Below are positions 10,352 through 53,850 of a stretch of DNA of 64,000 bases, piece after piece (the first letter of the stretch is position 1; each line of letters begins with the position of its first letter). The stretch is from assembly GCA_021296315.1 (NCBI GenBank), contig JAGWAO010000007.1:13737-77736 (forward strand), given 5' to 3'. The notes under the pieces were generated by a model, which saw only the letters and a list, made by a program, of their open reading frames with translations, did not search any database and was not told the origin of the DNA. The position numbers were made by a program, and so were the translations under genes. This DNA is from Acidimicrobiia bacterium (GTDB lineage Bacteria > Actinomycetota > Acidimicrobiia > Acidimicrobiales > Aldehydirespiratoraceae).

Positions 10352-10386
10352 CCGCGAGCGGCCTCACCCGCGAATATGGTTGTGCC

Positions 10387-11088: not shown

Positions 11089-11172
11089 GTAGAAACCTCC
11101 CGCGCCCACAGCCATGTCGCGCCTCGCCGCGGGTCGCGCCCGCCTTGGGCACGGGCTCGGGCCATGTGGTAC

Positions 11173-11187
11173 TTTGATGTGATCAAA
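11173..11187. promoter_or_regulatory. Perfect palindrome TTTGATgtgATCAAA (candidate operator)
   Basis: The site lies 62 nt upstream of the SBP ATG. The same half-sites recur at 20602-20616. Confidence 0.55.
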
Positions 11188-11248
11188 CTACGAGTTCTCG
11201 GCAGAGGCCCTCGCGGGCGCGCCGAGACCGGCACCCAGGAGGGTCCAC

Positions 11249-12373
11249 ATGGCACCAAACCAGTTCTCACGACGCAGATTCATCGGGCGCACCGCCGCTG
11301 GGGCGGGATTGATCCTCGGGGGTGGACACATCCTGACAGCCTGCGGCGACGACGAGGCCGCGGCGCCCGCGACAACCACCGCCGCGCCGACAACCACCGC
11401 CGCGCCGACAGCCACCGCCGCGCCGACGACCACCGCCGCGCCGACGACCACCGCCGCGCCGACGACCACCGCGGCCCCCGAACTCGCTGAAGCGAACTTC
11501 CAGCTGAGCTGGTTCGACTCCGTACAGTTCGGCGGCTCCTACATCGCCCACCAGAGGGGCTACTACGAGCGCTTCGGCCTTGACGTATCGCTCGTGCCCG
11601 GCGGACCTGGCGTGTCCCCGGACGCCGCGGTGGCCGCGGACCAGGCCCTGGTGGGCATCTCGGCTGCGAACTTCACGGGCCAGTCCGTGGCGGACGGCGC
11701 ACCGTTCAAGATCGTGGGCGTGGCCATGCAGAAGAACCCGTTCGTGATCGCCTCGCTGTCGGACAACCCGATCAACGAGCCCAAGGATCTGGAGGGCACG
11801 AAGCTCGGCATGGCCTTCAACAATCAACTCGACCTCGACGACATCAGCAAGATCGAAGTGATCACCAGCGACTACGACCCGGCACCGCTGGTCAACGGCG
11901 AGGTTGATTCGCTGCTGTGCTGGCTCACAGATCTTCCGGTGGCCATGACCGTCCAGGGAATCGACAACACCACCATGCTCTTCGCCGACTTCGGCTACGC
12001 GGTGCACAGCCAGACTCTGATATGCACTGAGGACTCGCTTGCCAACAAGCGCGACCAGGTGCTCGGGCTGCTCCGAGGCGACATCCTGGGCTGGCAGGAG
12101 TACCGGACCGACACCGATGCGGCCGCCCAGTTGACCGTCGACCTGTTCCCGGACGCCGGCTTCGACTTGGAGGCGCAGAAGCTGCAGGCATCGGAGCAGC
12201 TGAAGATCATGTTCAGCGCGGACACCGACGAGCACGGCTTCCTGTGGTTCACCGACGAGTCCGTCCAGGACAACATCCGCACCCTGGCCGCGCTCGGCGT
12301 GGACGTGACGGCAGACCTGTGGGACCGGTCCCTGCTGGAGGAGATCTACGCCGACGGCCCGGTCCTGACGTGA
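11249..12373 (+). CDS. ABC transporter substrate-binding lipoprotein, NMT1/THI5-like (NitT/TauT family)
   Basis: A twin-arginine-like signal SRRRFIG is followed by the lipobox LTAC, then a (TTAAP)n linker and an NMT1/THI5-like periplasmic binding fold pattern. Confidence 0.75.
   Translation: MAPNQFSRRRFIGRTAAGAGLILGGGHILTACGDDEAAAPATTTAAPTTTAAPTATAAPTTTAAPTTTAAPTTTAAPELAEANFQLSWFDSVQFGGSYIAHQRGYYERFGLDVSLVPGGPGVSPDAAVAADQALVGISAANFTGQSVADGAPFKIVGVAMQKNPFVIASLSDNPINEPKDLEGTKLGMAFNNQLDLDDISKIEVITSDYDPAPLVNGEVDSLLCWLTDLPVAMTVQGIDNTTMLFADFGYAVHSQTLICTEDSLANKRDQVLGLLRGDILGWQEYRTDTDAAAQLTVDLFPDAGFDLEAQKLQASEQLKIMFSADTDEHGFLWFTDESVQDNIRTLAALGVDVTADLWDRSLLEEIYADGPVLT
11371..11478 (+). repeat. Six tandem 18-bp units (gac[a/g][a/g]ccaccgccgcgcc) encoding a (PTTTAA)n linker
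   Basis: This is a direct in-frame tandem repeat inside the SBP gene, immediately after the lipobox. Confidence 0.9.
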
Positions 12374-12404
12374 CGGAGCGCAATCACAGTCTCAGCCGTC
12401 GAGA

Positions 12405-13211
12405 GTGATGGCCCGGCGGGGAGCGCCGGTAGACGTCGTCGGGGTCGGACGCACGTTCGCCCTCGGTGGCGGCGAGGTGGAAGCCCTTCGCGGGTTCGAC
12501 ATGCATGTCCCCGCAGGCGGCTTCAACGCGCTGATCGGACCGTCGGGGTGTGGCAAGTCCACGGCGTTGCGCCTGGTGGCCGGGTTGGACGTGCCAGACG
12601 AGGGGACCATCGACATGGACGGTGCCTCCCCCGACCAGATGCGGCGGGGTCGCCGAATCGGCGTCGCCTTCCAAGACCCGTCGCTGCTGCCGTGGCGGAC
12701 GGTCTCGACGAACATCCGGCTCGCGCTGGAGCTCGTGGGCCGGCGCCACGACACCGCAGCCGTCAGCGACTTGATCGAACTGGTCGGCCTGCAGGGGTTT
12801 GAGAAGGCCCGGCCCGCGCAACTCTCGGGAGGCATGCGCCAGCGCGTCGCCATCGCTCGCTCGCTCGTTACCGAGCCCGACCTGCTACTGCTCGACGAGC
12901 CCTTCGGGGCCCTCGACGCCCTCACGCGCCAGCAGCTCAACGACGAGCTCCAGCGCATCTGGACGGCCCGCGGGACTACCACCATCCTGGTGACCCACTC
13001 GATCCCCGAAGCGGTCTACGTCGCCGACGAGGTCCTGGTCATGTCGCCCCGACCGGGCCGGGTAGTGGCCCACCACGCCATCGATTTCGAGCGGCCCCGA
13101 ACCAGGGAGTTGCTTCTCACCGACGAGTTCCATGCCAAAGTGGAGGCGGTCTCAGGCAGCCTGCACCGCTCCGAGGGGCAGGTCGTTCGGCTCGAGGCAG
13201 ACGACAGTTGA
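12405..13211 (+). CDS. ABC transporter ATP-binding protein (NitT/TauT family)
   Basis: The translation shows GPSGCGKST (Walker A), LSGGMRQR (signature) and LLLDEPFGALD (Walker B). The start is GTG 12405 or ATG 12408. Confidence 0.9.
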   Translation: MMARRGAPVDVVGVGRTFALGGGEVEALRGFDMHVPAGGFNALIGPSGCGKSTALRLVAGLDVPDEGTIDMDGASPDQMRRGRRIGVAFQDPSLLPWRTVSTNIRLALELVGRRHDTAAVSDLIELVGLQGFEKARPAQLSGGMRQRVAIARSLVTEPDLLLLDEPFGALDALTRQQLNDELQRIWTARGTTTILVTHSIPEAVYVADEVLVMSPRPGRVVAHHAIDFERPRTRELLLTDEFHAKVEAVSGSLHRSEGQVVRLEADDS

Positions 13212-14827
13212 TCGCCCCTGCCCGAACTCGCAGCACGGCCACGACCAGCCAGGCCGCCACCGGGATGGACCGGGTGCCGCCGCGGGTTCTCAGCGCGGCC
13301 GTAGGGCTGATCGTGCTCGCGCTGTGGGAGTTGCTGGCCCGAACGGTGTACGCGGGGTCGTACCGGCTGTCGCCGCCCACCGCGGTGGTGGTCGACTTCT
13401 TCGAGTTCCGCGACCTCTACCTGCGTAACCTGTGGCACTCAACGAAGACTGCGGCTTGGGGTTTCCTCTGGGGGAATCTGGCGGCAATAGCCCTGGCTGG
13501 AGTGGCGTCAATCATTCCAGTGTTGCGTCGCAGCATCGGGGCAATCGCGCTCACCATTTTCTGCCTGCCGTTCATCGCGGTGGCCCCGATCCTGCGGCTG
13601 ATCACCGGTCCGGGCAACGGAACCCCGATCGCACTGTCGGCGCTGGCGGTGGTCTTCACGACTTACGTGGCCGCGCTGCTCGGCTTCGACCTGGCACCCG
13701 GGAGCGCCTTGGACGTGGTCCGCTCCTACGGCAGGGGCCGGTTCGCGGCCTTCCGCCGGGTCAGGCTCAGAGCATCGGTGCCAGCGATGATCGCCGGCCT
13801 GCAGATCGCCGCGCCGGCCGCCTTCCTGGGCGCGGTGGTAGGCGAGTTCACCGGGGCGCGCAGCGGCCTGGGGATACTCACGGTCAGGGCTCTGGGCTCG
13901 CTGAACACCGACCGCATCTGGGTGATCGCACTGCTGTCCACGATCGTCGCCACCGGCGGCTACATGGCCATCGGCGCGCTGGGCCGGTACCTGTGCCCGT
14001 GGTCCCCCGCGCTGGACCTGGGGGCCGTCCCGACACCCCGCCAGGAGCCGGGTCTGGTCAACCGGCTGGTCGCGCTGCTGGCGCCGATCCTTGTCGTGTT
14101 CGTGTTCTGGTACGCCTTCTTGTGGGTGTTCCAGATCAAGCCCTTCTTCGCCAAGACGCCCTTCGACGTGTGGGCGGAGCTGTTCACCAACGCCGACGCG
14201 GCTGAGACCCGCTCGTCGGTGTTCGGCGCTCTAGGCACCACGCTGTGGACTACTTCGCTCGGCTATGTGGCCGGACTGGTTGGCGCGATGGTGACCGCCG
14301 TGGTGTTCATCCTGGTCCCCTGGTTGGAACGATCCCTGATGCCGCTCGCCGTCGCTCTGCGGTCGATCCCCATCATCGTCACCACGCCGGTGATCATCCT
14401 GTTCGTCGGGCGGGGCCTGCTCACCACCACCGCCATCGTGGCGGTCATGTCGTTCTTCCCAACCCTGGTGAACTGTTATGCGGCCATGCGCCGCACCCCC
14501 GAGGGGATCCTCGATGTGCTCAAGTCCTACGACGCCCGGTCGGTGGCCAATGTGCGCAACGCCTACCTGCCGTCGGCGGTTCCGGCCCTTCTTGCTTCGG
14601 CCCGCATAGCGGTACCCACCTCGCTGCTCGGCGCCACGGTGGCCGAGTGGCTGGCCACCGGCGACGGGATAGGGGCGGTCATGGTCATCGCGTTCACCCG
14701 TAACGACTACAACGTGCTGTGGGTGTCGGTAGCGGTGCTGACGCTGGTGGCGGTAGTCGGATACTGGCTGGTGGCGGCAGTCGAGCTTCGTGCGCTCGAG
14801 CGCATGGCTCCGGGGGTGTCGCGATGA
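13208..14827 (+). CDS. ABC transporter permease, fused tandem (two permease domains in one polypeptide)
   Basis: The 539-aa protein has two homologous halves, each ending in an EF/EW-TG...G.G motif region. TTG 13208 overlaps the upstream stop (TTGA); an alternative start is ATG 13265. Confidence 0.8.
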   Translation: MIAPARTRSTATTSQAATGMDRVPPRVLSAAVGLIVLALWELLARTVYAGSYRLSPPTAVVVDFFEFRDLYLRNLWHSTKTAAWGFLWGNLAAIALAGVASIIPVLRRSIGAIALTIFCLPFIAVAPILRLITGPGNGTPIALSALAVVFTTYVAALLGFDLAPGSALDVVRSYGRGRFAAFRRVRLRASVPAMIAGLQIAAPAAFLGAVVGEFTGARSGLGILTVRALGSLNTDRIWVIALLSTIVATGGYMAIGALGRYLCPWSPALDLGAVPTPRQEPGLVNRLVALLAPILVVFVFWYAFLWVFQIKPFFAKTPFDVWAELFTNADAAETRSSVFGALGTTLWTTSLGYVAGLVGAMVTAVVFILVPWLERSLMPLAVALRSIPIIVTTPVIILFVGRGLLTTTAIVAVMSFFPTLVNCYAAMRRTPEGILDVLKSYDARSVANVRNAYLPSAVPALLASARIAVPTSLLGATVAEWLATGDGIGAVMVIAFTRNDYNVLWVSVAVLTLVAVVGYWLVAAVELRALERMAPGVSR

Positions 14828-15417
14828 CCGTCGCAGCCGCCAGTTCATCCGACGGCACCGGCTTGGCGCGGCCGGCTGCTCAAGCAGCGGTGCTGGCCCG
14901 CTACGACGAGCTGGGCACTCTGCTTGCGGGAATGGACGACCGGCCGCGGGCCGACCCCGGCCTGTCCGCTGAGGCCGCGCCCGTTCTGTTGCACGAGGCC
15001 CGGCTGCTGGACGCCGGACGCTTCGAGGACTGGCTGGCCGGCTGGACCGACGACGCGGTGCTGTGGTTGCCGCTGTCGGCGCCGGCGCATCCCGGCACCG
15101 ATCAGTCCCTCCTGCTGGACGACAATCGCCGGCTGGCCGAGCGCGTTGAATGGCGCCGCGACCCGTCGGCGTGGGGCCAGCACCCCCCGTCGCGCACCAC
15201 TCGCGTGGTCGGGAGCATCGAGGCCTGGCCCGCGCCGGGCGGCGGCCTGGTGACTCGGTCCACGCTGCTCGTCGACGAATTCCGCCACGGCCGTCACCAG
15301 GCGCTCGCCGGCTACCAGATCCACGAACTGGTCGGCGGCGACCTTGAGCGCCGCACCAAGATCCTCGTCATGCCCGCGCTGGGCACCGGCGTTCGCAATC
15401 CAAGCTTCCTGCTCTAG
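14824..15417 (+). CDS. Aromatic-ring-hydroxylating dioxygenase beta subunit (NTF2/SnoaL-like)
   Basis: LHEARLLDAGRFEDWLAGWTDDAVLWLP is a typical beta-subunit pattern. The start forms an ATGA overlap with the permease stop. Confidence 0.75.
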   Translation: MTVAAASSSDGTGLARPAAQAAVLARYDELGTLLAGMDDRPRADPGLSAEAAPVLLHEARLLDAGRFEDWLAGWTDDAVLWLPLSAPAHPGTDQSLLLDDNRRLAERVEWRRDPSAWGQHPPSRTTRVVGSIEAWPAPGGGLVTRSTLLVDEFRHGRHQALAGYQIHELVGGDLERRTKILVMPALGTGVRNPSFLL

Positions 15418-15427
15418 GGGTACCGCC

Positions 15428-16708
15428 GTGACCACCGTCTCCTTCGATCCGGCATCCGCCGACTTCGGCCAACTGGTGCAGCCCCACCGGGTGCACCGCC
15501 GCATCTATACCGACCCGCAGATATTCGATCTGGAGATGACCAGGGTGTTCGCCGCGTCGTGGTGCTACGTCGGCCACGAGAGCGAGATTCCCGAAGCGGG
15601 CGACTATCGCGCCACCACGCTGGGTCGCCGGCCCGTGCTGATGACCCGGGACCGCGACGGCTCAGTGAACGTCCTCCTCAACCGGTGCACGCACCGCGGC
15701 ACCGTGCTGGCCGTTGAGGCCGGCGGCTGTGCCAAGCGCTTCGTGTGCCCCTACCACGGCTGGACCTTCGCACCCGACGGACAGTTGTTGGCCATCCCGT
15801 TCCCTGCCGACCACCCGGTGGAGGACTACTCGACGCTCTCGCTGGGCCGGCTCGCGACGGCCAGCTACCGGGGCTTCGTGTTCGCCACTCTCAACGCAGA
15901 TCCTGAGCCACTGGAGTGCTGGCTGGGCGAGGCTCGTGACGCCTTCGACACGATCGTCGACCGCCATCCCGGTGGCAGCATCGCGGTGATGGGGTCCCCC
16001 CAACTCCTGGAGTTCGTCGGCAACTGGAAGCTCTCGTGGGACAACGCCGCCGACGGCCTGCATGCGACCTTCGCCCACGAGTCGTACAACACGCTGGGCG
16101 AGAAGGTGGACACCGAGACGGTCCTGGCCCGCGACCCAGGGTCCACGCCGATGGTGTCCAAGGCGCTGCGAAACGGCCACATGGTGGTGGACCAGCGGCC
16201 GGGCATCCCTCAAGGACCGTGGGAAACGATGCGCAAGGTGCCGTTCCGCGAGCCGATGGAGTACGCACTGGTGAACGCGGGCCATGCGGGCCTGCTCAAC
16301 CTCGCCACCGGGAGCATGGTGAACCTGTCGCTGTTCCCGAACCTGCTCTTCGTGGGCAACCAGTTGCTGGTGATCGAGCCGGTGGCCGTGGACCGGACCA
16401 GGCTTCAGTTGTGGCTCACGTCCGCGCCGGACGCCCCGGGCGAGATCGATCTGCTGCGCCTGCGGGTGGACGAGGACTTCGTGAACTTCGGCACTCCCGA
16501 CGACCTGGACATGTTCGAGCGGGTGCAGCGAGGCCTGTCCATCCCGGAGATGGAGTGGATCGACATGAGCCGGGGACTCCCCGATGGCAGTGTCGACGGC
16601 GACGGCAGCACGATCTACGGTCCGATCACCTCCGAAGCACCCCAGCGCCGCTATCTCGCCCACTACACGACGCTGATGACCACTCCGGCAGTGACGCGTG
16701 CCCGCTGA
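15428..16708 (+). CDS. Rieske non-heme iron oxygenase alpha subunit
   Basis: A Rieske motif CTHRG...CPYHGW is followed by a catalytic domain. A GTG start at 15428 was chosen; the upstream ORF part is Ser/Cys/Pro-rich. Confidence 0.85.
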   Translation: MTTVSFDPASADFGQLVQPHRVHRRIYTDPQIFDLEMTRVFAASWCYVGHESEIPEAGDYRATTLGRRPVLMTRDRDGSVNVLLNRCTHRGTVLAVEAGGCAKRFVCPYHGWTFAPDGQLLAIPFPADHPVEDYSTLSLGRLATASYRGFVFATLNADPEPLECWLGEARDAFDTIVDRHPGGSIAVMGSPQLLEFVGNWKLSWDNAADGLHATFAHESYNTLGEKVDTETVLARDPGSTPMVSKALRNGHMVVDQRPGIPQGPWETMRKVPFREPMEYALVNAGHAGLLNLATGSMVNLSLFPNLLFVGNQLLVIEPVAVDRTRLQLWLTSAPDAPGEIDLLRLRVDEDFVNFGTPDDLDMFERVQRGLSIPEMEWIDMSRGLPDGSVDGDGSTIYGPITSEAPQRRYLAHYTTLMTTPAVTRAR

Positions 16709-17516
16709 CTCGGGTCTCGAGTCGAGCACCGAGCGCCGAGCCGCCTTCAGCGAGCGGGGCGCGGTGGTGATACCAGGCTTGCTGGACCGCGACTGGTGCG
16801 AGCGGCTGCACGCGGCCATCGGGCGCTGCCAGGCCAGCCCCAGCCAGTTCTACGGGGTGCTGTCACCACCGGGCGAGCTCAAGGTGGACAGCGACCTGTT
16901 CCGCTGGTTCGACGACAGTGACATCGCCGAGGCGACCCACTCATCGAACCTGCCCGCGCTGGGAGCGGAGTTGTGCGGAGCCGATGCCGCGGTGCTGATC
17001 GAGGACCAGTGGTTCTGCTCGGAGCCCGGAGCGATCTCGCGCAGCCCCTGGCACCAGGACCATCCCTACTACAACCTCGACCGGCCCTTCGTCACCGTCT
17101 GGGTGACCCTCGACGACGTGACCGCCGACGCCGCGCTGCGGGTGGTGGAGGGCTCCCACGCCACCGGCATCACCTACGCGCCGATCGAGTTCTCGTCATC
17201 GATCGCCACCATCGGCGGCGGCTCCGAGCTGGAGCCGGTTCCCGACGTGGACGCAGACCCCGGCAGGTTCCCGGTCACCACCTGGAATCTGCAGGCCGGC
17301 GACGCGGTGGCCATCGACTCCCGGATGCTGCACTCCACCGGCATCCGGGAGGTGGCCGACCGACCCTTCAGGCGCCTGTCGACCCGCTACGCCCACCCCG
17401 ACACCCGCTATCTGGACCTCGGCGAGCAGGCCGCGGTGTTCTGGAAGAAGCTCCCCCACGGCCTGAGCACCGGCGACCCGGTGGCCGGTGAGGTCTTCCC
17501 CCTCATCCAGGCCTGA
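16698..17516 (+). CDS. Phytanoyl-CoA dioxygenase (PhyH)-family Fe(II)/2-oxoglutarate oxygenase
   Basis: The translation shows ERGAVVIPGLL, WHQDHPYY (HxD) and a distal His region. The gene overlaps the alpha-subunit stop by 11 nt. Confidence 0.7.
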   Translation: MPADSGLESSTERRAAFSERGAVVIPGLLDRDWCERLHAAIGRCQASPSQFYGVLSPPGELKVDSDLFRWFDDSDIAEATHSSNLPALGAELCGADAAVLIEDQWFCSEPGAISRSPWHQDHPYYNLDRPFVTVWVTLDDVTADAALRVVEGSHATGITYAPIEFSSSIATIGGGSELEPVPDVDADPGRFPVTTWNLQAGDAVAIDSRMLHSTGIREVADRPFRRLSTRYAHPDTRYLDLGEQAAVFWKKLPHGLSTGDPVAGEVFPLIQA

Positions 17517-44516: not shown

Positions 44517-44625
44517 CGGGTAACCACCTCTCGTTCTCGGCGATGGGTCAGTCCTGGCTTGATGAGAATCCTATGGCGAGCGGGGTCCAGATGAGCGCCG
44601 TTCCCTTGCAGCCGCCGGGGTGTAT

Positions 44626-44649
44626 CCTTACTCTAGAAGCAAGGTAAGG
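44626..44649. promoter_or_regulatory. Inverted repeat CCTTAC-N12-GTAAGG with central TCTAGA (candidate antitoxin operator)
   Basis: The repeat lies directly upstream of, and overlapping, the AAGGAGG RBS of the AbrB-type antitoxin. Confidence 0.35.
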
Positions 44650-44658
44650 AGGCGTGTG

Positions 44659-44907
44659 ATGGACGCTTCGGCTCGGGTCACGTCGAAAGGCCAGGTGACG
44701 ATTCCCAAGGCAGTGCGCGACGCCCTGGCCTTGGAGACCGGGGATCGGGTCGTATTCAGGGTGGAGCAGCACCGGGCGATCATGGCCCGGACCCCCGACC
44801 TGTTGGAGCTGGCCGGCACGGTGGAAGTGCCCGCGGCCAAGCGAGGCGCAGACTGGGGCGAGGTGCGATTGGCGGCCCGGAATCGGTGGGCGCACCGGGC
44901 TCGGTGA
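44659..44907 (+). CDS. vapB: AbrB/SpoVT-family antitoxin (VapB-type)
   Basis: The SKGQVTIPKAVRDALALETGDRVVF motif is present. AAGGAGG lies 7 nt upstream of the ATG. Confidence 0.8.
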   Translation: MDASARVTSKGQVTIPKAVRDALALETGDRVVFRVEQHRAIMARTPDLLELAGTVEVPAAKRGADWGEVRLAARNRWAHRAR

Positions 44908-45296
44908 CGACCCTGGTGGACACCAATGTGCTGGTGCGTCACCTCACGGGCGACCCGCCGGACCTAGCCGCTGGGGCCACTGCCTACCTCGCGGAAGCGG
45001 CGGCGCTGATCCTGCCAGACCTGATTCTGGCCGAGGTCGTCTACGTGCTGGAGTCCTTCTACGAGGTTCCGCGGAACCGGGTTGCAGAGTTGGCTCGGTC
45101 GATAGTCGCTTTCGGGAGCATCCAGACCCTGGATCCCGGGCTGCTGCTGAGGGCAGTCGAGGTGTACGAGGTACATCGGATCGATTTCAGCGACGCCTAC
45201 CTCGTGGCGCTAGCCGAGACGGCCGGCGTCGAGGCCATCGCATCATTCGACCGCACCATCGACCGAGTCCCCACAATCAACCGCATCGAGCCATGA
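44904..45296 (+). CDS. vapC: PIN-domain toxin VapC
   Basis: The translation shows LVDTNVLV, DFSDAYLVALAE and ASFDRTIDR. The start forms a GTGA overlap with the antitoxin stop. Confidence 0.8.
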   Translation: MTTLVDTNVLVRHLTGDPPDLAAGATAYLAEAAALILPDLILAEVVYVLESFYEVPRNRVAELARSIVAFGSIQTLDPGLLLRAVEVYEVHRIDFSDAYLVALAETAGVEAIASFDRTIDRVPTINRIEP

Positions 45297-45337: not shown

Positions 45338-45646
45338 TCAGCAGCCGAGGGCGTAGGTCACGGCCCGGCAGACGGCTCGCATCGTTCGGTCGCTGAGCTC
45401 GCCGGCTCGATTCGAGAGCGAAGCCCGTCGCAGCGTGTGTAGGCCGTCACAGTTGACAACCGACCCCGCCGTGATTCCAGCCACGGGATCCGGCAGGGGA
45501 ACCTCAGCAGCGAGTCCCCTACCGGTGCTGGTGATCTCAGCGACCGTGACCGATTCCCGCACGTCGATGACCTCGGGACGAGTGAGGATCAGGACCGGAC
45601 GCCGCTTGCGCCTTACCTCTGCCCACCACACCTCGCCCCTGTTCAT
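45338..45646 (-). CDS. mazF: MazF/PemK-family toxin
   Basis: The translation starts MNRGEVWWAEV..RRPVLILT. The start forms an ATGA overlap with the upstream antitoxin stop. Confidence 0.75.
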   Translation of the reverse strand: MNRGEVWWAEVRRKRRPVLILTRPEVIDVRESVTVAEITSTGRGLAAEVPLPDPVAGITAGSVVNCDGLHTLRRASLSNRAGELSDRTMRAVCRAVTYALGC

Positions 45647-45855
45647 GGGGTTCCCCATGCCTCCGCCTCGTCCCAGAAGCTGTCGGGCTGCTCCGGGAAT
45701 CGCTGGTAGGCCGCACGATCCGCTTCGCCCATGGCCCGCTTGACCGCAGCCGCCACGCCTTCGCGGGCCGCTGCCGAGATGTTGACATTGAGCCGGCGCG
45801 CCCTTTCAGCCAGTGCCTCGTCCAGAGTAAACGTCGTACGGGTCATCGCCATCAC
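45643..45855 (-). CDS. RHH/CopG-like antitoxin partner of MazF
   Basis: This 70-aa protein (TTFTLDEALAERARRLNVNISAAAREGV) is translationally coupled to the toxin. Confidence 0.7.
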   Translation of the reverse strand: MMAMTRTTFTLDEALAERARRLNVNISAAAREGVAAAVKRAMGEADRAAYQRFPEQPDSFWDEAEAWGTP

Positions 45856-45864
45856 ATTATGCTA

Positions 45865-46407
45865 TCAGAATAGATAGCACCCAGGCGCTGCGGCTGCGCG
45901 CTCAAGCTCGTGGCCCCAAGAGACGCTGCAGCGGACCGTGCTGAGCGGGCCGGCGGCGCTGGTGAAGAGGGCTATCCAGATCGAGATTGTGGCCGCGGCG
46001 ATGGCGGAGACGATGACGTAGAGCTGCCTGGCTTGGACCTTGATGATCTCGGCCCGCTCCTTGGCGGCCTGGGCGAAGCCCTCGTGCATGGTGACCTGCA
46101 AGGCGGCATGGCTCTCAACGAACTCGGCGTTCGTTTCGGCGAACCTGGCGTTGATCTCAGCAAGCGCCACTGCGAGGCTCGCTTGGAGGCGCTGCTCGAC
46201 CCCGGCAAGGTCATCCTTGGTGGCCATCTGATCCCACCCGCTGGGCGGGAGCTGGTCCATGAGGGTGTCTGCGGCTTCTTCGCCCATCGAGTCCACCAGG
46301 CTTACGTACAGCGCGGCGCGCTGCGACTGGGTTGCGGCCATCACGCGACCTCCGTCCGTTCGAGGGTGATCGGCTGGGGGCACCCGCGAGGGCTGCTCCG
46401 AGGCCAC
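45865..46407 (-). CDS. Hypothetical coiled-coil protein with C-terminal TM helix (DUF1640-like pattern)
   Basis: ATKDDLAGVEQRLQASLAVALAEINARF is followed by the hydrophobic LYVIVSAIAAATISIWIALF. GTG 46407 lies 3 nt after the upstream stop; the alternative start is ATG 46341. Confidence 0.5.
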   Translation of the reverse strand: MASEQPSRVPPADHPRTDGGRVMAATQSQRAALYVSLVDSMGEEAADTLMDQLPPSGWDQMATKDDLAGVEQRLQASLAVALAEINARFAETNAEFVESHAALQVTMHEGFAQAAKERAEIIKVQARQLYVIVSAIAAATISIWIALFTSAAGPLSTVRCSVSWGHELERAAAAPGCYLF

Positions 46408-46410
46408 CGG

Positions 46411-47352
46411 TCAGGCCTGACAGCCCAACACGGCAGCAACAACGCCACCGTATCGCATCGGAGTTATAGATTTCAACTCAATTCGGCATAGTCCAATTAA
46501 ATCTAATGTCACTAACGATGGACGCCACGTGCTGCTACTAGACGACGTCTTCAGGACGGCGCGAGATCGCAGTCGGCGCCGCGGGAGCTCTAACGGACAC
46601 CGGTGCTGGTGCCGGCCGTCTTTGTTGTCGTTCGGAGGATAAACCCCCAGTTGGCGACCAGAAGTCGAGAAGTGGTGGCCGTCCAGGTCGGGTATCTGGT
46701 TCCGCTGCTCCCACCAGTGTTGCGGGAAGTCGTCGCCGTGGCGCAGCGGCCTTCCGCACACGAGCTGCCAGTACCAGCGCTCCGCTCGATGCGCGCACAC
46801 TGTCGCCGGGGCTCGGTAGGGCGCACCGCCTGCCTCCAGCCATCCCGGCGTGCCGCTGGCAAGCCAGACTCCCCATTCGCCGGTGTCGCCGTCCCTGACG
46901 ACGCTATCCGCCCTCCGCTGGCCGTCGCGCCCCACGGGAAGCGTCGCATGGAACTCGGAGCTGTCGGGCTGGTCCGGATACTCGCTCACGCCCGCGATGG
47001 CCACGCCACCCGACCGGAGCAGCGGATCGTCGATGGCGGGTATGCCGTTGGCCAGTTCGAAACCCGACTGAGGATTGTCAGGCCCGTAGCGAAGACCCCG
47101 TCCGAGCGCGGCCTGCCAGTACCAACGCTTGGCTCGGTGGATGCTCGCCGCCAGCGGCGCGCTGTAGGGCTCGCCGCCCGCGTGCAGGAGATAGGCGCGG
47201 TCGTATCCCGCGAAGTACGGCGGCGTTCTCAGAGCGCAGTAGATGTGGACATTCCATCGCTCCTCGGATTGCGGCTCCTCTTGGATGACGCTCGCTCGCC
47301 AGAAGGCGCCGCTTGACCACACCCAGCCTGTGCTGATTCGGCAATGCCGCAT
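46411..47352 (-). CDS. Hypothetical protein with internal duplication (two RWYWQ modules)
   Basis: The ORF starts 3 nt after the protease stop. Residues 59-109 and 175-225 are clearly homologous. I do not recognise a family. Confidence 0.55.
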   Translation of the reverse strand: MRHCRISTGWVWSSGAFWRASVIQEEPQSEERWNVHIYCALRTPPYFAGYDRAYLLHAGGEPYSAPLAASIHRAKRWYWQAALGRGLRYGPDNPQSGFELANGIPAIDDPLLRSGGVAIAGVSEYPDQPDSSEFHATLPVGRDGQRRADSVVRDGDTGEWGVWLASGTPGWLEAGGAPYRAPATVCAHRAERWYWQLVCGRPLRHGDDFPQHWWEQRNQIPDLDGHHFSTSGRQLGVYPPNDNKDGRHQHRCPLELPRRRLRSRAVLKTSSSSSTWRPSLVTLDLIGLCRIELKSITPMRYGGVVAAVLGCQA

Positions 47353-47355
47353 CGG

Positions 47356-47739
47356 CTACTCCCTAACTCCTAGTGCAATGCCCTCACCAAGGGAGGGGCC
47401 GCGGGGGATCAGGTGTTGATCGACTGGGGCGACTGCCAAGGCGAGGCCCTCGAGGGTGTAGGCGCCAAGCAGGGAGGGAGCGTCATCCTCGCCGAAGGCC
47501 ACAAGGGTCGTCACGCTCTCGCCGTTGACGGTCACCCGCGCCTCGCCGAAATCGGCATCTACAATCCTGCCGTCGGCCAGTCGCATCCGGCGCCTGGCCG
47601 ACCGTTCGACGCCGATCTCGTGGAGCAGGAGCGCCGGGACCACGCTGTAGAAGGCGCCGGTGTCCACTGTGGCCTCGATCTCCACGGACCGCTCGCTGCT
47701 CGATCCGACAATCCGCAGAGGCCACTCGAGTGTTCCCAT
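47356..47739 (-). CDS. Retropepsin-like (clan AA) aspartic protease, small stand-alone type
   Basis: The translation shows ATVDTGA (D-T-G-A active-site motif), LADGRIVD and PSLLGAYTLEGLAL, a pattern seen in bacterial and archaeal clan AA mini-proteases. Confidence 0.65.
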   Translation of the reverse strand: MGTLEWPLRIVGSSSERSVEIEATVDTGAFYSVVPALLLHEIGVERSARRRMRLADGRIVDADFGEARVTVNGESVTTLVAFGEDDAPSLLGAYTLEGLALAVAPVDQHLIPRGPSLGEGIALGVRE

Positions 47740-47802
47740 GGCAGATGCCTCCCGCTCGGTCGGCCGGGCCCCGCGATTGACGTTGAGCCGAAGTCCACAG
47801 AT

Positions 47803-48181
47803 GTGAATATAGCTCAGTATAAGCTGATCTCAAGTGTTTTCCCCGTCCAATCGCACCTGCTCAAACAGATCGCACTCGACTTCGAGTACTACAGAAAGAA
47901 ACACGGCCACAATGACCTCTACAAGCTGGCCGCTCGACTCAAGGTGAGCCGCAACACGCTTGCTTAGTCTCAGCGAAGGCGAGCATTGGCCCGCCGCCAT
48001 TGCCATCATGCGACTCGAGATCTGCTACGGGCGCAGGTTCTGGGGCAAAGGACACCGAGTCGCGTCAAAGGTGCAAAGGCGTCTGCCAAGAAGGCGTAGC
48101 CGGTCCCGGCCCAGCGCTCTGCTCGTCATCGCAGGCGCCGACCCCAGGTTCCAGGTACCGGTGCGGCGCTCGTTGCACTGA
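47803..48181 (+). pseudogene. Possible frameshifted XRE-type HTH gene remnant
   Basis: Frame 1 reads ..NDLYKLAARLKVSRNTLA* and stops at 47967. Skipping one nucleotide (47962) continues as LLSLSEGEHWPAAIAIMRLEICYG, which completes a typical XRE helix-turn-helix. Confidence 0.3.
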
Positions 48182-48266
48182 AGCGGCTCCCAGGCAAGCG
48201 GTGCTCTAGGGCACCCGGGATGCTGGCGGGGGTGTTGATGACACCTCGGGCGGGCATTATGGCTTC

Positions 48267-51200
48267 GTGCTCGATTCCGGCTGGCCTGAAGACGGCTGGC
48301 GTGCGCTCGGGAGACCGGATCGCGGTGGGGAACCTTGGTGGACGCCCGAACAAGCCCGGCTCATTGGTTGGCTCAACAGATACGCGCCTTCGGTCGAGCC
48401 CTTCTATAGAGGGGCTCTAGTGCTGGCAGCGTTCGACAGCTTGCCTGGTCGGGTGCACTTCATCGCTCACGCGATCCGCGAGATCGGGAACCGTCTTCCG
48501 GTTGCGCTCGGTAACAAAGTCAAGAAGAAGACGGCCGGTTACGAGGACCACGCCAAGGCGATCCGCGATAGGTGGCTCGACGAGGGCCTCCCGCCGGATG
48601 GAAGGCTGCGGTTTCTGCAGGAATCCGCGCCTTCTGCGTCGGGTCCCCTACGCCAAGAGGTGTCCGTTGGATTATTGGCGTCGGTGGGGAAGCTGATAGC
48701 GGAGCACCGCAAGGCCGAGGCGAACAGAGAGGCCCGCGAGCGAGCCAAGTTTGGTGCCTTGAGCGACTTGGGCTCCAACCCGTCATACGTCATCAAGAAC
48801 TGGGGCAGGTGGGCTCGCGAGGCGGTCGAGTTCGTGCACGCGAGGGACAAACTGCTGCCAGCGGAGAAAGACGCCGAGTGGGTGGCGAAGTTCCTTGCGT
48901 TCGAGCAAGAGCTGATGGCCATCGCGAGACCCTCCTACGAGAATCTGGATGCACTCGACGGACTGCTAGCTGAGGCGAACAGGGCGATGAACGACTGGAC
49001 TGCACCTTCTGGCTCTGAGCTCGCACGTGTTGTAGCGCTGGCGACTCGCTTTGAGAACCGGACGTACTTCTTTGACCGCCTCGAGAACCCCGAATGGGTT
49101 TCTGCGCTGGCGGACGAGGGCGTGTTCGATGATCCCCCCGATCGGGAGCAGGCTGACGAGGCCGGGTATTGGCGGTTCCCGCCGTGGCCCGAGGGCCGCT
49201 ACCTCGCCCGTATGGCACCTGCGGCCCCGGACGCGGTCGCAGCGGTCCTGGAGAAGTCGCGACCGTCGGCCAACCCGAGGGTGACGGCCATCCTGCTTGA
49301 GTGCCTGCAAGCCCTTCCCCCCGAACAGTTCCGGAGACTCGCGCCAAAGACCCTCGAATGGATCACCGACCGTGCAGCCGCAGAGTTCATGGACCACTTC
49401 GACGATCAAGCGGCGTCGGCCGTTGCTCGCCTCGTGCGCGACGGCAAGATCGAACAGGGACTGATCGCCGCGAAGGCACTCCTGAAGCTCGAGCGCCGCT
49501 CTACGGCATCCGACAGCTCCCAGGCCCACGAGATTCCCGCGCTGCCCGAGCCCGTTGGGCGTCTCAGGGATTGGGAGTACGACCGGACGATTGCGACGAT
49601 CTTGCCGGATCTGGTCGACTCGGCAGGCCTAGATGGCCTGAGGCTGTTCTCGTCGCTGCTCTCAGTCGCCATCGAGTACTCCAGAAGCGAGGGCGAGCTG
49701 CCCGACTCCGATGGCCACTCCTGCGCCTGGAGACCGGCTATAGAAGACCACCCTCAGAATATGGATCGCGATGTCCGCTGTGTGCTCGTGACAGCAGTGC
49801 GCGACGCTGCCGTTCGCCTCGCCGTAGTCTCCGATGAGAACCTCCAGAATGTCGTGCAGATGCTCGAATCGGCAACCGCTCTGCATCGCCGTATTGCGCT
49901 GCACGTCCTCGCCGTTGTCCCGGGCGGCGCGGAACTCGCGGCCGAGCGGATCACCAACAGGACCATCCTCAACGATCACCGCCTCAAGCACGAGTACGCC
50001 GAGTTGCTTCGATCGCGATGGGTCGAAGCACCCCCCGAAGTGCAGAGGACATTCCTGGACTCGGTACTCGCCGGCCCCGACCTCGACGACTACCAGCCTG
50101 AGGACGAGACCGCCGCCGCCGAGTGCTGGATGCGCGACTGGCTGAGCATTGTCGCCGACCATCTCTCAGGCGACGACGCGGACAGGTACCGCGAACTCGT
50201 ATCGAAACACGGCGAGGCCGACCACCCGGACTTCGTGTCATGGACCGAGACTTGGAGCGGACCCACGACTCCCCGCACTACCGAACAACTGAAAGAACTC
50301 TCACCAGGCGAGGTCATCGAATATCTGGATGACTGGCGTCCCGACGCTGGAGCCGGACGGGGCTTCAGCCCCTCCATGGAAGGACTCGGTCTTACCTTCA
50401 GCAAAGCTGTATCTGAACGCGCCGCTGACTTCGCCGCTGCGGCGAACCGGATCGAGACCCTGGACCCGACCTATGTCCGCCACTTCTTGAGCGGACTCGA
50501 AGCAGCCGTCAAGGCGGGCACCGCGATCCCATGGGACCAACCGATGCACCTGATGGCATCGGTGCTGGAGCACCCCTTCGACCACCCCGAAGAATCGCCG
50601 GTCTTTGACCGTGACTCAGGGTGGCGCTGGACCCGCGGCCGGGTCGCGTCGTTGATCGAACAGGGAGTCGCCGACCGCGACAACGGGATCCCGTTCGAAC
50701 TGCGCCAAGCGGTCTGGGATGTCCTGGAGCCCCTGACGCGCGATCCGCATCCATCGCCAGGCGACGAGGCCAGCGACAGCATGGATCCGTTGACGCGGTC
50801 GATCAACACGAACCGCGGCAAGGCGATGCACGCCGTCATGGCATATGCCCTGTGGTGCGCACGCGAACTCGACGCGCAAGGCGAGGACATGTCCGCGGGG
50901 TTCGACTTGATGCCTGAGGTGCGAGCCGTGCTCGAGGAACGTCTGGACCCCGATACTGATCCGTCCCTTGCGGTGCGGGCCGTCTACGGCAAGTGGCTTC
51001 CCTGGCAAATCCTGATCGACGCGCGATGGGTATCTGCCAACATCTCGCGGATACTCCCGCCCACCCCGAACCAAGAGAGCCTCCGTGATGCCGCCTGGGG
51101 CACCTACATCTGCTGGTGCCCACCCTTCGACACGGTCTATGACGTACTGGGTGACGAGTACGAGGCTGCGGTGGAACGAATCCCCACCGGCGCCACCGTC

Positions 51201-51827
51201 GGATTCGCCAACGACGAACGAGTCGACGCCAAGCTGGGCGAGCACCTCGTCACGTTCTATTGGCGCGGCGTCCTACAACGCTCCCTGCTCGAACGCTGGT
51301 TCGAGCTCGCCGACGACGAAATCGCCGGAGACGTCATGGAGTTCTTGGGACAGGCACTCCGCGACACGCCAGAAGACATCGAGCCCCCAGTAGGGGAACG
51401 AATTCAAGGCCTCTGGGACTACCGGATCAACGTCATAACCAGCGAGCCCGAATCTCACGACAACGAAGCCAAAGCGTTCGCACTCACCTTCACCTCCGCC
51501 AAGTTCGACGACGAATGGTCTCTCGCAGGCCTCAACGCCACGTTGCGACCCGGTGACCGTAGATGGTTCGGCCGCGACGTCATAGGGCGCCTCGCCGAAA
51601 TGGCAACCACCAACCCCGTAGAGGCCACCCGACTGACTCTCAAGATGCTGGAGGATGCTGCCAACGACTGGGACCACCACAGCTGGCGTGACCCGGTTCG
51701 GGACGTCCTAACCGCGACCAGCGATGCCGCAGACGAAGAAACCCGCAACCACCGCGCCTCCATCATCGACCACTACATCAAACACGGAGACCTCGACTTC
51801 CGGGCGCTTACCCCTACGCAGCCGTAG
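48267..51827 (+). CDS. Large orphan protein (1186 aa), predicted all-alpha/HEAT-like repeat body with a distinct ~230-aa N-terminal module
   Basis: This long uninterrupted ORF lies in the A/T-richer island and has a GTG start. I see no recognisable catalytic or NTPase motif. The sequence is helix-rich with recurring W/F-x-x-L-type repeats. Confidence 0.7.
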   Translation: MLDSGWPEDGWRALGRPDRGGEPWWTPEQARLIGWLNRYAPSVEPFYRGALVLAAFDSLPGRVHFIAHAIREIGNRLPVALGNKVKKKTAGYEDHAKAIRDRWLDEGLPPDGRLRFLQESAPSASGPLRQEVSVGLLASVGKLIAEHRKAEANREARERAKFGALSDLGSNPSYVIKNWGRWAREAVEFVHARDKLLPAEKDAEWVAKFLAFEQELMAIARPSYENLDALDGLLAEANRAMNDWTAPSGSELARVVALATRFENRTYFFDRLENPEWVSALADEGVFDDPPDREQADEAGYWRFPPWPEGRYLARMAPAAPDAVAAVLEKSRPSANPRVTAILLECLQALPPEQFRRLAPKTLEWITDRAAAEFMDHFDDQAASAVARLVRDGKIEQGLIAAKALLKLERRSTASDSSQAHEIPALPEPVGRLRDWEYDRTIATILPDLVDSAGLDGLRLFSSLLSVAIEYSRSEGELPDSDGHSCAWRPAIEDHPQNMDRDVRCVLVTAVRDAAVRLAVVSDENLQNVVQMLESATALHRRIALHVLAVVPGGAELAAERITNRTILNDHRLKHEYAELLRSRWVEAPPEVQRTFLDSVLAGPDLDDYQPEDETAAAECWMRDWLSIVADHLSGDDADRYRELVSKHGEADHPDFVSWTETWSGPTTPRTTEQLKELSPGEVIEYLDDWRPDAGAGRGFSPSMEGLGLTFSKAVSERAADFAAAANRIETLDPTYVRHFLSGLEAAVKAGTAIPWDQPMHLMASVLEHPFDHPEESPVFDRDSGWRWTRGRVASLIEQGVADRDNGIPFELRQAVWDVLEPLTRDPHPSPGDEASDSMDPLTRSINTNRGKAMHAVMAYALWCARELDAQGEDMSAGFDLMPEVRAVLEERLDPDTDPSLAVRAVYGKWLPWQILIDARWVSANISRILPPTPNQESLRDAAWGTYICWCPPFDTVYDVLGDEYEAAVERIPTGATVGFANDERVDAKLGEHLVTFYWRGVLQRSLLERWFELADDEIAGDVMEFLGQALRDTPEDIEPPVGERIQGLWDYRINVITSEPESHDNEAKAFALTFTSAKFDDEWSLAGLNATLRPGDRRWFGRDVIGRLAEMATTNPVEATRLTLKMLEDAANDWDHHSWRDPVRDVLTATSDAADEETRNHRASIIDHYIKHGDLDFRALTPTQP

Positions 51828-52136
51828 GCAACTGCGCGTTGCGTCTGCGCTGTCCGTAGTTTGGGCACCATGCGCAAACTCGATGTCCGCATTCGTTGAG
51901 GTCAGAGGAATGGGCTAGGTCAATTGAAAGTGACCGAGTATTGCTTGCGGTCGTCCTCCCAGCCGCGGTCGATCGTTGTCCAGCGCAGCGTCAGCCGCGT
52001 CCTCGATCTTGGTGAGACTCGCTTCCACGCTGTCCCGAAGTTGCACAAACTGGGAATCGGCTTAACAGTAAACTTATCGACAATCAACCCGCGCCCGGTG
52101 CGCTGGACCGAGACAACCGGGTAACGCTGCGCCATC

Positions 52137-53261
52137 ATGGGGGCATGGAGATCCATGGAACCTGCAAGCCCGGCTTCGAGGCAGTGCGCGACGCGTTCGA
52201 GGGAGATCGGGGCGGCCGCGGCCATAACCGTGGACGGCGAGTTCGTGGTCGACATCTGGGGCGGCGACGCCGACAGCGAAGGCACGCCCTGGCAGCGCGA
52301 CACAATCGTCAACGTCTACTCCACCACCAAGACCATGGCCGCTGCCTGCATGCTGGTGCTGGCCGACCGGGGCGAGCTCGACTTCGACGCCCCCGTCGCG
52401 CGGTACTGGCCCGAGTTCGCCCAGAACGGCAAAGACGGCGTGCTGGTGCGCCACGTGATGGCCCACACTGCCGGACTACCGGGCTTCGACCCGCCCATCA
52501 CCACCGATCAGCTCTACGACCTCGACTTCGTCGCGGCCAACCTCGCGGCCCAGGCGCCGTGGTGGGAGCCGGGCACCGCCCCGGGCTACCACGCCATCAG
52601 CCAGGGCAACCTCCAGGGCGAGATCCTCTACCGCATCACCGGACAGCGCATGGCCGACTGGTTCCGCACCGAGGTGGCCGAACCCCTCGGAGCCGACTTC
52701 TGGATCAGCCTGCCCGCCTCCGAGGACCACCGGGTCGCCGAGCTCGTGCCCCCGGTGTTCAGCCGCGAGGAACTCACGATCAACGGCGTGGAGGTGTCCG
52801 CCGACTCCATCGCGGTCAAGGCCATACTCAGCGTCCCGATGACCGCCACCGAGCCGGCCACCCGGGAGTGGCGGGCCGCCGAGATCCCCGCCGCGGGCGG
52901 CTTCGGCAACGCCCGCTCGATCGCCCGCATCCACGCTGCGCTGGCCTGCGGAGGCACGGTGGACGGGGTCCGGCTGCTGTCGGAAGCCGGGGCCCGCCGG
53001 GCCCTGGAGGAGCAGACCGACGGCATCGACCAGGTGCTGATGGTGCGCCTGCGCCACGGGCTCGGCTTCGGGCTGCAGCTGGGCGACGAGTTCACGACCG
53101 AGCCGGGCCAGATGTTCTGGGGAGGCTGGGGAGGCTCGCTGGCCGCGGTCGACCTCGACGCCCGTATGAGCGTCGCCTACGTGATGAACCGCATGGACGC
53201 CGAGCTCATGGGCGACATCCGCGGCCGCCGGATCGTTGACGCCGTCCGGACCTGCCTGTAG
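52137..53261 (+). CDS. Serine hydrolase, beta-lactamase/esterase (class C-like) family; N-terminus probably frameshifted
   Basis: The translation shows VYSTTKT (SxxK) and ITVDGEFVVDIWGG. The family-typical N-terminus MEIHGTCKPGFEAVRDAFE is encoded in a different frame starting at 52145. Confidence 0.75.
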   Translation: MGAWRSMEPASPASRQCATRSREIGAAAAITVDGEFVVDIWGGDADSEGTPWQRDTIVNVYSTTKTMAAACMLVLADRGELDFDAPVARYWPEFAQNGKDGVLVRHVMAHTAGLPGFDPPITTDQLYDLDFVAANLAAQAPWWEPGTAPGYHAISQGNLQGEILYRITGQRMADWFRTEVAEPLGADFWISLPASEDHRVAELVPPVFSREELTINGVEVSADSIAVKAILSVPMTATEPATREWRAAEIPAAGGFGNARSIARIHAALACGGTVDGVRLLSEAGARRALEEQTDGIDQVLMVRLRHGLGFGLQLGDEFTTEPGQMFWGGWGGSLAAVDLDARMSVAYVMNRMDAELMGDIRGRRIVDAVRTCL

Positions 53262-53405
53262 GCCCGCTCTCCGCCAAATTGATGTCGTTGTGGACCCTAT
53301 AGGGGCACTATCAGCATCAATTTCGCAGACAGGCCCACCGCTCCGGCAAATTGATGCAGATTCGGACCTTCCCGGGGCACTATCGGCATCAATTTCGCAG
53401 AAGAC
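53262..53405. repeat. Two tandem ~72-bp units, each an imperfect long hairpin with A/T-rich arms AAATTGATG / CATCAATTT
   Basis: The arms lie at 53276-53284/53315-53323 and at 53348-53357/53386-95. The array fills the whole convergent intergenic space. Confidence 0.85.
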
Positions 53406-53409
53406 GGGC

Positions 53410-53850
53410 CTAGTCCTCGCCGATGTCCTCGTTCCAGAGGTCGGGCTCGGCCGCGATGAACTCCTCCATCATGGCCACGCACGTCTCGTCGTCGAGCACC
53501 GTGACCGTCACGCCCCGCTCGGCCAGCAGGGCCTCCTCGCCCATGAACGTCCGGTTCTCGCCCACCACCACCTCGCCGATGCCGTAGAGCAGGATCGCCC
53601 CGGTGCACATGGCGCAGGGTGACAGGGTGGTGTACATCACCGAGTCGCGGTAGACGCTCGCCGGCAACCGGCCGGCGTTCTCCAGGGCGTCGGTCTCGCC
53701 GTGGCGGATGGCCGAGCCCATCTGCACCCGGCGGTTGTGGCCCCGGCCGATGATCTCACCGTTGTGCACGAGCACGGCTCCGATGGGGATGCCGCCGGTG
53801 GCCCGGCCCCGCATGGCCTCGTCCACGGCCGCCTGCATGAATTGATCCAT
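53410..53850 (-). CDS. Cytosine/nucleoside deaminase, CMP/dCMP zinc-binding type (FCY1-like)
   Basis: The translation shows HGETDALE (HxE) and LSPCAMCTG (PCxxC). The protein is 146 aa. Confidence 0.85.
   Translation of the reverse strand: MDQFMQAAVDEAMRGRATGGIPIGAVLVHNGEIIGRGHNRRVQMGSAIRHGETDALENAGRLPASVYRDSVMYTTLSPCAMCTGAILLYGIGEVVVGENRTFMGEEALLAERGVTVTVLDDETCVAMMEEFIAAEPDLWNEDIGED

Follow-up and report, generated by a model that had tools for sequence, protein, structure and literature searches.

A candidate anti-phage protein of Acidimicrobiia with a helical head and a predicted Dsr1/Avs7-type sensor

The window analysed in this study comprises 64,000 nucleotides of contig JAGWAO010000007.1 from an Acidimicrobiia genome assembly (GCA_021296315.1). 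At 48267..51827 of its forward strand it carries an uninterrupted open reading frame (ORF) that begins with GTG and encodes 1186 amino acids followed by a stop codon. The encoded protein, in which a small helical head precedes a long helical body resembling the sensor of the defence proteins Dsr1 and Avs7, is the subject of this report. GC contents at the first, second and third codon positions (GC1/2/3) are 0.68/0.47/0.76, which is coding-like for this genome, and the third-position value lies below that of the flanking host genes (0.87-0.97). An identical protein is present in a public Acidimicrobiia metagenome-assembled genome, where it is annotated as a hypothetical protein of 1135 aa (P0001) whose start lies 51 codons downstream of GTG 48267; the stretch 48267-48419 is thereby left off and two conserved helices are lost. 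We prefer GTG 48267 as the start because the N-termini of homologues (MFDS.., MLDA.., MVDA..) align there and because both conserved helices are then included.

The reading frame and the junction between its modules

Most of the 153 homologues retrieved with the whole protein (E<=1e-3) are 946-964 aa long, cover the last 80% of the query and begin at M241 (MNDWTAP..). Fused lengths (at least 1021 aa) are seen in about 14 of the best 120, and 12 of these carry the H-x2-R-E motif of the head. With residues 1-245 as the query, 33 small proteins of 186-270 aa were recovered, several of which share contigs with body-only homologues. The head is a gene of its own (~235 aa) in most relatives, its TGA overlapping the ATG of the ~950-aa body gene (ATGA); the small gene ends in ...EANRR* and the large gene begins with MNDWTAP.., which sets the limits of the two modules at residues 1-240 (head) and M241-P1186 (body). 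An initial annotation, made from the DNA letters alone, had proposed a separate N-terminal module ending '..LDGLLAEANRAM', and this boundary proved right to within one residue when compared with the gene ends of the split relatives. Where it treated the locus as one gene, a correction is needed: the ORF is a fusion of a normally two-gene unit.

The junction reads 'aac agg cga tga' and 'aac aga cga tga' in two fetched split loci (L001 and L002, respectively), whereas the window has 'aac agg gcg atg aac', in which an extra G in the GGG run at 48982-48984 brings the two frames into phase. A homopolymer error at the ATGA overlap (GG read as GGG) would likewise leave a single additional G, in which case the 1186-aa ORF would be an artefact joining two truly separate genes. 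We consider such a sequencing or assembly error very unlikely, because the separately assembled Logan contig L030 (SRR35761419) is 100% identical to window positions 47547-52079 (4533 bp) and has the same junction, because a 90% identical JGI protein (P0002) is fused likewise, and because other fused lineages (P0014-type, P0015, P0061-type, P0119, L011, L014 and L029) have different junction sequences. Even if the frames had been joined in error, the biology would be the same, since head and sensor form one functional unit. The window clade is closer to split relatives (P0003-P0013, 74-88% identity) than to other fused clades (49-63%), which suggests that head and sensor were probably fused repeatedly and independently.

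An exhaustive hidden Markov model search with the head profile yielded 842 clusters (50% identity) at E<=1e-3 and 541 at E<=1e-10, nearly all of them stand-alone proteins of ~235 aa; together with the 153 whole-protein homologues, this leaves no ground for the label 'orphan' that the initial annotation had applied. Among the top 150 head homologues, all longer proteins are full or truncated fusions to the same sensor type, and no other partner domain was seen. We fetched 23 loci from GTDB genomes by the head alone, and the body gene overlaps or is fused with the head in 20 of them; one locus stops at a contig edge. The pairing holds even where identity falls to 24% for the head and 26% for the body. 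Paired loci occur in Acidimicrobiia (including Ca. Poriferisodalis and Ca. Aldehydirespirator), Planctomycetota, Phycisphaerae/Sedimentisphaerales, Aminicenantes and Thermodesulfobacteriota.

Table 1. Modules of the 1186-aa ORF and neighbouring features, with positions in the window
Feature	Position	Strand	Remarks
Full fused ORF	48267..51827	+	spans what are a small head gene and a large sensor gene in split relatives
Head module, residues 1-240	48267..48986	+	all-alpha (~8 helices), putative effector; stand-alone homologues of 186-270 aa
Signature helix, residues 60-78	48444..48500	+	PGRVHFIAHAIREIGNRLP; conserved in the wide head family
Second conserved polar cluster	48837..48905	+	H191 (48837-48839) to E213 (48903-48905); from the head alignment
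Fusion junction 'agg gcg atg aac'	48981..48992	+	R239 A240 M241 N242; split relatives have 'agg cga tga' with an overlapping ATG
Body, residues 241-1186	48987..51824	+	predicted alpha-solenoid sensor; counterpart of ~946-964 aa stand-alone proteins
Most conserved body stretch, residues 261-317	49047..49217	+	R.ENR.YFFDRLENP.W ... FPPWPEGRYLARMA; invariant columns 261-315
Predicted Dsr1/Avs7-type sensor region	49710..51653	+	PADLOC Dsr1 model, residues 482-1129
MazE_antitoxin/AbrB-like protein and PIN toxin	44620-45296	+	VapBC-type pair bordering the low-GC island on its left
PemK/MazF toxin, CcdA-like antitoxin, two unknown ORFs and Asp_protease_2 protein	45338-47739	-	divergent from the 1186-aa ORF
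Divergent intergenic region, 527 bp	47740..48266	.	between the system and the minus-strand operon
Beta-lactamase-family hydrolase	52137-53261		

The sensor-like body and the head module

A Pfam search of the 1186-aa protein returned no domain at E<=1, in agreement with the earlier statement that SIR2, TIR, P-loop, nuclease and protease signatures are absent, and searches of PDB sequences found no relative, either with the whole protein or with profile A1. The informative match is that to Dsr1 (defence-associated sirtuin 1), a protein reportedly described by Garb et al. in 2022. The PADLOC Dsr1 model (PDLC04166) aligned residues 482-1129 with profile positions 545-1174 of 1227 at E 1.1e-37, and this match over 648 residues is confined to the sensor part, the SIR2 part being unmatched. 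Sensor-only matches to the same model recur in distant family members (E 4e-24 to 9e-35), with E 1e-33 to 1e-35 in those of Planctomycetota and Thermodesulfobacteriota. The NCBIfam Dsr1 equivalog model scored 25.7 bits, far below its cutoff of 1400. Judged by these profile alignments, the predicted sensor is homologous to that of Dsr1, beyond a likeness of architecture. The initial annotation had compared the arrangement of an effector-like module on a solenoid with DSR-type proteins and had proposed a PADLOC run as a check; both the comparison and the check came out in its favour.

AlphaFold2 (AF2), run on a 150-sequence alignment, modelled the body wholly as helices in a continuous solenoid with pLDDT mostly >90, interrupted by low-confidence breaks at residues 413-424, 660-664, 695-699 and 775-779. 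Foldseek searches of the PDB with the whole protein returned generic HEAT/ARM solenoids alone (karyopherins, CAND1 and mTOR, TM<=0.25), and no Avs7 entry was among the 50 best fold matches. Helices and solenoid matches together uphold the fold class, HEAT/ARM-type, that had been assigned by eye. Within the body, conservation peaks at residues 261-317, a stretch that is conserved in a Streptomyces family too (see below) and may be a docking or hinge region for the head.

Searches of plasmids with tblastn placed further proteins beside the body. Haloarchaeal 'ATP-binding proteins' match it, and one of them, a Halocatena protein of 1493 aa, combines nSTAND1/AAA_22 with a C-terminus matching both the window body (E 6e-17) and the Dsr1 model, which is an Avs7-like architecture. 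On a Halocatena salina plasmid (L034, 1008-7799), the Avs7-like STAND gene adjoins a divergent gene for a 'HEPN domain-containing protein'. A conjugative plasmid of Legionella pneumophila (L035, 4788-7157) encodes a sensor-only protein of 789 aa between IS3 and IS256 transposases; it matches the PADLOC Dsr1 model at E 8e-34 over profile positions 469-1214 and is probably a cut-down Dsr1-like gene. The same search found a 1090-aa protein on a plasmid of Streptomyces sp. NBC_00212, encoded beside Tn7-like genes.

Avs7 (antiviral STAND family 7) and Dsr1 have a common bilobed, sharply bent repeat sensor, which is carried by 9,097 proteins (Lee et al., bioRxiv January 2026, PMC12803255; Nature 29 July 2026, PMC13581612). 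Split proteins occur within this superfamily, and its non-STAND members have varied N-terminal effectors, namely NADases, nucleases, kinases and unknown domains (PMC13581612). Both SeAvs7 and EcDsr1 are triggered by the major capsid protein of the phage; SeAvs7, studied there by cryo-EM (cryo-electron microscopy), forms tetramers in an ATP-dependent manner and uses EF-Tu as a cofactor (Lee et al., PMC13581612). In Extended Data Fig. 2 of that work, a 'HEPN-like RNase-containing' sensor carrier from Streptomyces sp. NBC_00271 is starred (PMC13581612).

P0365 (WP_328755779.1, 1089 aa), which comes from strain NBC_00271, falls in the same 90%-identity cluster as the NBC_00212 plasmid protein. BLASTP aligned the window protein with P0365 at 26% identity over 879 aa (E 2e-41), and hhalign of the fused family with the Streptomyces ~1090-aa family gave a probability of 100% (E 4e-76) from window residue 163, which lies in the head. 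The two sensors are homologous end to end, the heads are collinear and share the landmarks H-x2-R-E, W...AH and FE, and both proteins are fused single polypeptides. However, the Streptomyces head is ~60-70 residues shorter, the consensus aligned at R62 (LPLxSTGMLVSH) has no conserved residue there, and in the sample seen the Streptomyces genes are always fused, whereas the window family is mostly split.

The window protein resembles Dsr1 in the homology of its body to the C-terminal sensor, in bearing a putative N-terminal effector on a ~900-aa helical sensor without an NTPase, and in its occurrence in defence islands. It differs in that SIR2 is absent and an unrelated 240-aa helical head stands in its place, in that head and sensor are usually two genes, and in host range, with Acidimicrobiia, Planctomycetota and others in contrast to the Proteobacteria or Firmicutes that harbour Dsr1. 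NAD+ depletion by the window protein is unlikely because a NADase domain is absent. With Avs7 it shares the type of sensor domain and the exchange of effectors at the N-terminus, but it has neither a STAND NTPase module (no AAA, NACHT or nSTAND Pfam match) nor a Cap4 nuclease, and the ATP-dependent tetramerisation of SeAvs7 should therefore not be assumed. As elsewhere in the superfamily, the putative effector is N-terminal to the sensor, either fused to it or encoded by an adjacent split gene with an ATGA overlap.

AF2 placed the helices of the head at residues ~27-39, 44-55, 62-82, 92-105, 134-164, 173-190, 199-220 and 227-244; residues 83-160 form a variable insertion that is missing from the P0014-type and Streptomyces proteins. 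The family signature is PGRxRFxxH-x2-RE-x2-NRLP ... H ... FE. Conservation, measured over 139 diverse members, reaches 99% at H68 and at R71, 100% at E72 (E or D), 95% at N75, 96% at P60 and L77, 94% at P78 and 78% at R62. H191 is conserved in 92% of all rows and 96% of ungapped rows, and E213 is the sole invariant column in an alignment of 102 diverse members (A4). Further nearly invariant residues are W35, Y47, W103, W179, F209, D231 and N238; the C-terminal head helix (ENLD.LD.LL..AN) is highly conserved, as is the N-terminal motif of the sensor. Although the mean column identity is 24%, H68, R71, E72, N75, H191 and E213 are each at least 92% conserved, and the first four, spaced i, i+3, i+4 and i+7, occupy the same helix face. 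Nearly invariant polar residues on a single helix face suggest an active site, and the conserved polar set as a whole suggests that the head may be enzymatic.

The initial annotation had pointed to RVHFIAH (R62..H68) as a loose fit to the HEPN pattern Rx4-6H. The motif is indeed present, at the start of helix 62-82, but its value as evidence did not stand: the head has 2 matches to the pattern against 1.37 expected (P(>=1)=0.79) and the whole protein 8 against 7.3, which is chance frequency, and we rejected the pattern as support for HEPN. R62 is not the best-conserved feature, and roughly one member in five has W, K, H or Y there instead. The head does resemble HEPN RNases (Csm6/Csx1, Cas13, RnlA, Abi and ApeA) in being small and all-helical with an R/H-bearing helix start (PGR62xxFxxH68), in its presumed effector role in conflict systems, and in that a distant relative has been labelled 'HEPN-like' in the literature. 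It differs from them in having no HEPN profile match or significant fold match, and in that its conservation peaks at H68-x2-R71-E72-x2-N75, H191 and E213, not at a canonical Rx4-6H pair. Csm6 appeared in the fold search of the head at E 2-3 and a probability of 0.08, which is not significant, and hhalign comparisons of the head with an HEPN_Swt1-DUF499 protein and with the Halocatena 'HEPN domain-containing protein' were negative. That the head is an RNase of the HEPN type is possible, though less likely than not.

PF18165 (pP_pnuc_1, a predicted pPIWI-associating nuclease), of which no account was found in the pPIWI paper of Burroughs (2013), matched 5 of the 102 head members weakly, with a best E of 0.001, and the head-family consensus reached 12.1 bits on the signature helix, below the gathering cutoff of 26.3; the PADLOC model Aga_Nuclease matched a single head member (E 0.0017). 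These sub-threshold matches may hint at a nuclease-like helix common to the head and Argonaute-associated proteins, and the best current label for the head is a predicted nuclease or RNase-like enzyme. We dismissed TetR_C and DUF2497 matches of head members as not significant and an endoglucanase match of the head profile in PDB sequences (E 0.006) as spurious.

Genomic surroundings in the window and among homologues

GC content dips to 0.62-0.67 at ~44-52 kb of the window, compared with ~0.70 outside, which agrees with the A/T-richer island described in the initial annotation and places the window copy in a compositionally foreign island beside VapBC and MazF-type toxin-antitoxin pairs. The ORF is also, as described there, divergent from a toxin-antitoxin operon, the minus-strand string with its PemK/MazF toxin and CcdA-like antitoxin. 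A scan of 40-56 kb for tRNA genes found none, and no direct repeats flank the island at its borders. Promoters are presumably located in the divergent intergenic region, where a promoter scan gave a single promoter-like match, on the minus strand and at chance level; promoter and terminator scans were at background.

The minus-strand string is tightly packed and could be another accessory module. Its Asp_protease_2 protein has 127 aa and its two unknown ORFs have 313 and 180 aa. The 313-aa protein, which matched nothing in Pfam or the PDB, has an apparent internal duplication, with ..Y.AP....HRA.RWYWQ...GR.LR.G.. present twice. On the other side of the system, two tandem 61-nt units (82% identical, 72-nt spacing) occupy the intergenic stretch 53269-53401, between the beta-lactamase-family gene and a minus-strand ORF at 53410-53850. 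Each unit contains an internal palindrome, AAATTGATG...CATCAATTT, and the pair could be a REP/MITE-like or regulatory element.

Homologues of the system lie amid mobile and defence genes with no synteny conserved between lineages, in keeping with the expectation of the initial annotation that they would occupy variable islands rather than core synteny. In the loci examined, no third conserved gene was found beside the head-sensor pair. Among 126 ORFs counted beside the system at 18 GTDB loci, parts of type I restriction-modification systems were the most frequent (ResIII 6, Methylase_S 4-6, N6_Mtase 3-5, EcoEI_R_C 3), followed by SWI2_SNF2 (4), IS66 (3), and DUF1156, Schlafen AlbA_2 and PIN (2 each). 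Neighbours include integrases, ISL3 transposases, DUF4062 and an rve-family gene in L001; transposases, an HEPN_Swt1-DUF499 protein and an SNF2-NOV_C helicase in L002; AAA_21 with RloB, DUF1156, HEPN_Swt1-DUF499 and TIR_2 in L006; and HsdM, a SWI2/SNF2 helicase and AAA_16/22 in L032, which adjoins an rpoBC-rpsL-rpsG-fusA-tuf-rpsJ cluster.

Four loci of Acidimicrobiales (L032, at 10001-17352, L015, L019 and L021) have the system and restriction-modification genes directly beside rpsL-rpsG-fusA-tuf-rpsJ, with 5 nt between the end of the system and rpsJ in L032. The proximity to tuf is curious given the EF-Tu cofactor of SeAvs7, and this neighbourhood is probably a mere integration hot spot.

Some copies are decayed. 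Two loci (L017 and L025) hold lone head remnants, a third (L028, 8530-11407) has its sensor broken into three ORFs, and in Ca. Poriferisodalis (L003, at 1782-2132, L004 and L005) the small gene is cut to its C-terminal half, with a DDE transposase gene just upstream of it in L003.

Proposed function and its alternatives

The homology of the body to the Dsr1 sensor, the linkage of head and sensor, the conserved polar residues of the head and the defence-type neighbourhoods lead us to propose that the protein is probably a self-contained sensor-effector, an anti-phage module of the Dsr1/Avs7-sensor class. Its ~945-residue solenoid, as a homologue of the sensors of EcDsr1 and SeAvs7, would detect the phage, most likely by wrapping a conserved phage structural protein. 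Our best guess for its target is the HK97-fold major capsid protein, a tentative choice that follows the analogy with the characterised systems. Once bound, the sensor would change in conformation or oligomeric state and thereby switch on the 240-residue head, which takes the place of the SIR2 NADase in Dsr1 and of the nuclease in Avs7. The head, with its nearly invariant H68/R71/E72/N75, H191 and E213, is probably an enzyme; it may be a HEPN-like RNase or another nuclease, and its activity would stop the growth of the infected cell. In the split relatives the two products are predicted to be translationally coupled through the ATGA overlap, whereas here the additional G would give one polypeptide. 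Trigger, activation step, enzymatic nature of the head and outcome for the cell are all inferred. Activation cannot copy the ATP-dependent tetramer of Avs7, as the STAND NTPase is absent; it may resemble that of Dsr1, and both a target-induced opening of a bent sensor and an oligomerisation that unites the heads are plausible.

Several points weigh against this proposal. The family is known from sequences and predicted structures alone, and the trigger may differ, since the sensor is just ~20-26% identical to characterised relatives. The head family (102 members) matched no significant family in Pfam or PADLOC, with no HEPN model among the families matched at E<=1, and it had no significant match among PDB sequences or among PDB and BFVD folds. 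Its model is of moderate confidence (pLDDT 68.6 when modelled alone and similar in the full-length model, with a core of ~60-90). The link to the published Streptomyces carrier is likewise imperfect: that P0365, from the same strain, is the starred protein is a strong inference, and the head profile alone aligned with Streptomyces residues 22-161 only weakly, though collinearly (E 3.3e-4, probability 38%). The decayed copies are as expected of dispensable genes, and the activity of single copies is not guaranteed.

Within a defence system of this class, the head could still be something other than an enzyme. As an adaptor, autoinhibitory lid or oligomerisation module it would control the sensor or bring in a host factor, as Avs7 recruits EF-Tu, and toxicity would reside elsewhere or arise by sequestration. 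Such a role would fit a head that has no enzymatic family or fold match and is paired with this sensor alone, unlike promiscuous effector domains, and the conserved C-terminal head helix and N-terminal sensor motif would suit a dedicated interface. Near-invariant H, R, E, N, H and E at so low a mean identity are nevertheless more typical of an active site, the head sits exactly at the effector position of Dsr1 and Avs7, and the pair is accompanied by no third conserved gene; we regard the non-enzymatic role as unlikely and lean, somewhat beyond even chances, towards an effector enzyme. It is possible, though less likely than not, that the head represents a new effector enzyme family distinct from HEPN, working only with this capsid-type sensor clade and usually as a separate subunit. 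A still more distant alternative is that the protein is a helical scaffold with a housekeeping or symbiosis-related role, its likeness to Dsr1 coming merely from repeats. Solenoids do draw spurious profile matches, the fold search yielded only generic HEAT/ARM proteins, and many homologue hosts are sponge-associated Acidimicrobiia (Ca. Poriferisodalis). Yet the Dsr1 match is long (~630 positions), collinear and reproducible across the family (down to 1e-37), the tblastn matches include STAND proteins with the same C-terminal region, the neighbourhoods vary by genome and are rich in restriction-modification, insertion sequence (IS) and defence genes, and a patchy spread over phyla, some decayed copies and the foreign-composition island in the window also speak against it; we regard a scaffold as very improbable.

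Work published in 2026 had already set out the principle of a shared sensor with swapped effectors and the superfamily itself, and it depicts a distant fused relative. What the present analysis adds is the placing of the window protein in this superfamily, the size of the head family and its strict pairing, a mainly two-gene architecture with ±1-nt fusions at the ATGA overlap, and a conserved residue set in which canonical HEPN features are not clearly displayed; the advance is a characterisation at the level of the family, not a new concept. The repeated ±1-nt fusion and fission at the ATGA overlap is a natural Rosetta-stone case, indicating that the two products act together, and H68, R71, E72, N75, H191 and E213 are singled out as residues for mutation. 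If the head is a new enzyme family, the system would be a two-component version of Dsr1, in which a dedicated partner enzyme of new chemistry is activated or set free once a phage protein is sensed. A Dsr1/Avs7 capsid-type sensor appears to be paired with a large effector family beyond the coverage of Pfam and PADLOC (v2.0.0), and because this effector family is not covered, PADLOC would miss or mislabel such systems. A 'hypothetical protein' thus becomes a candidate immune receptor in little-studied uncultured lineages, among them Acidimicrobiia (including relatives of sponge symbionts), Planctomycetota and others.

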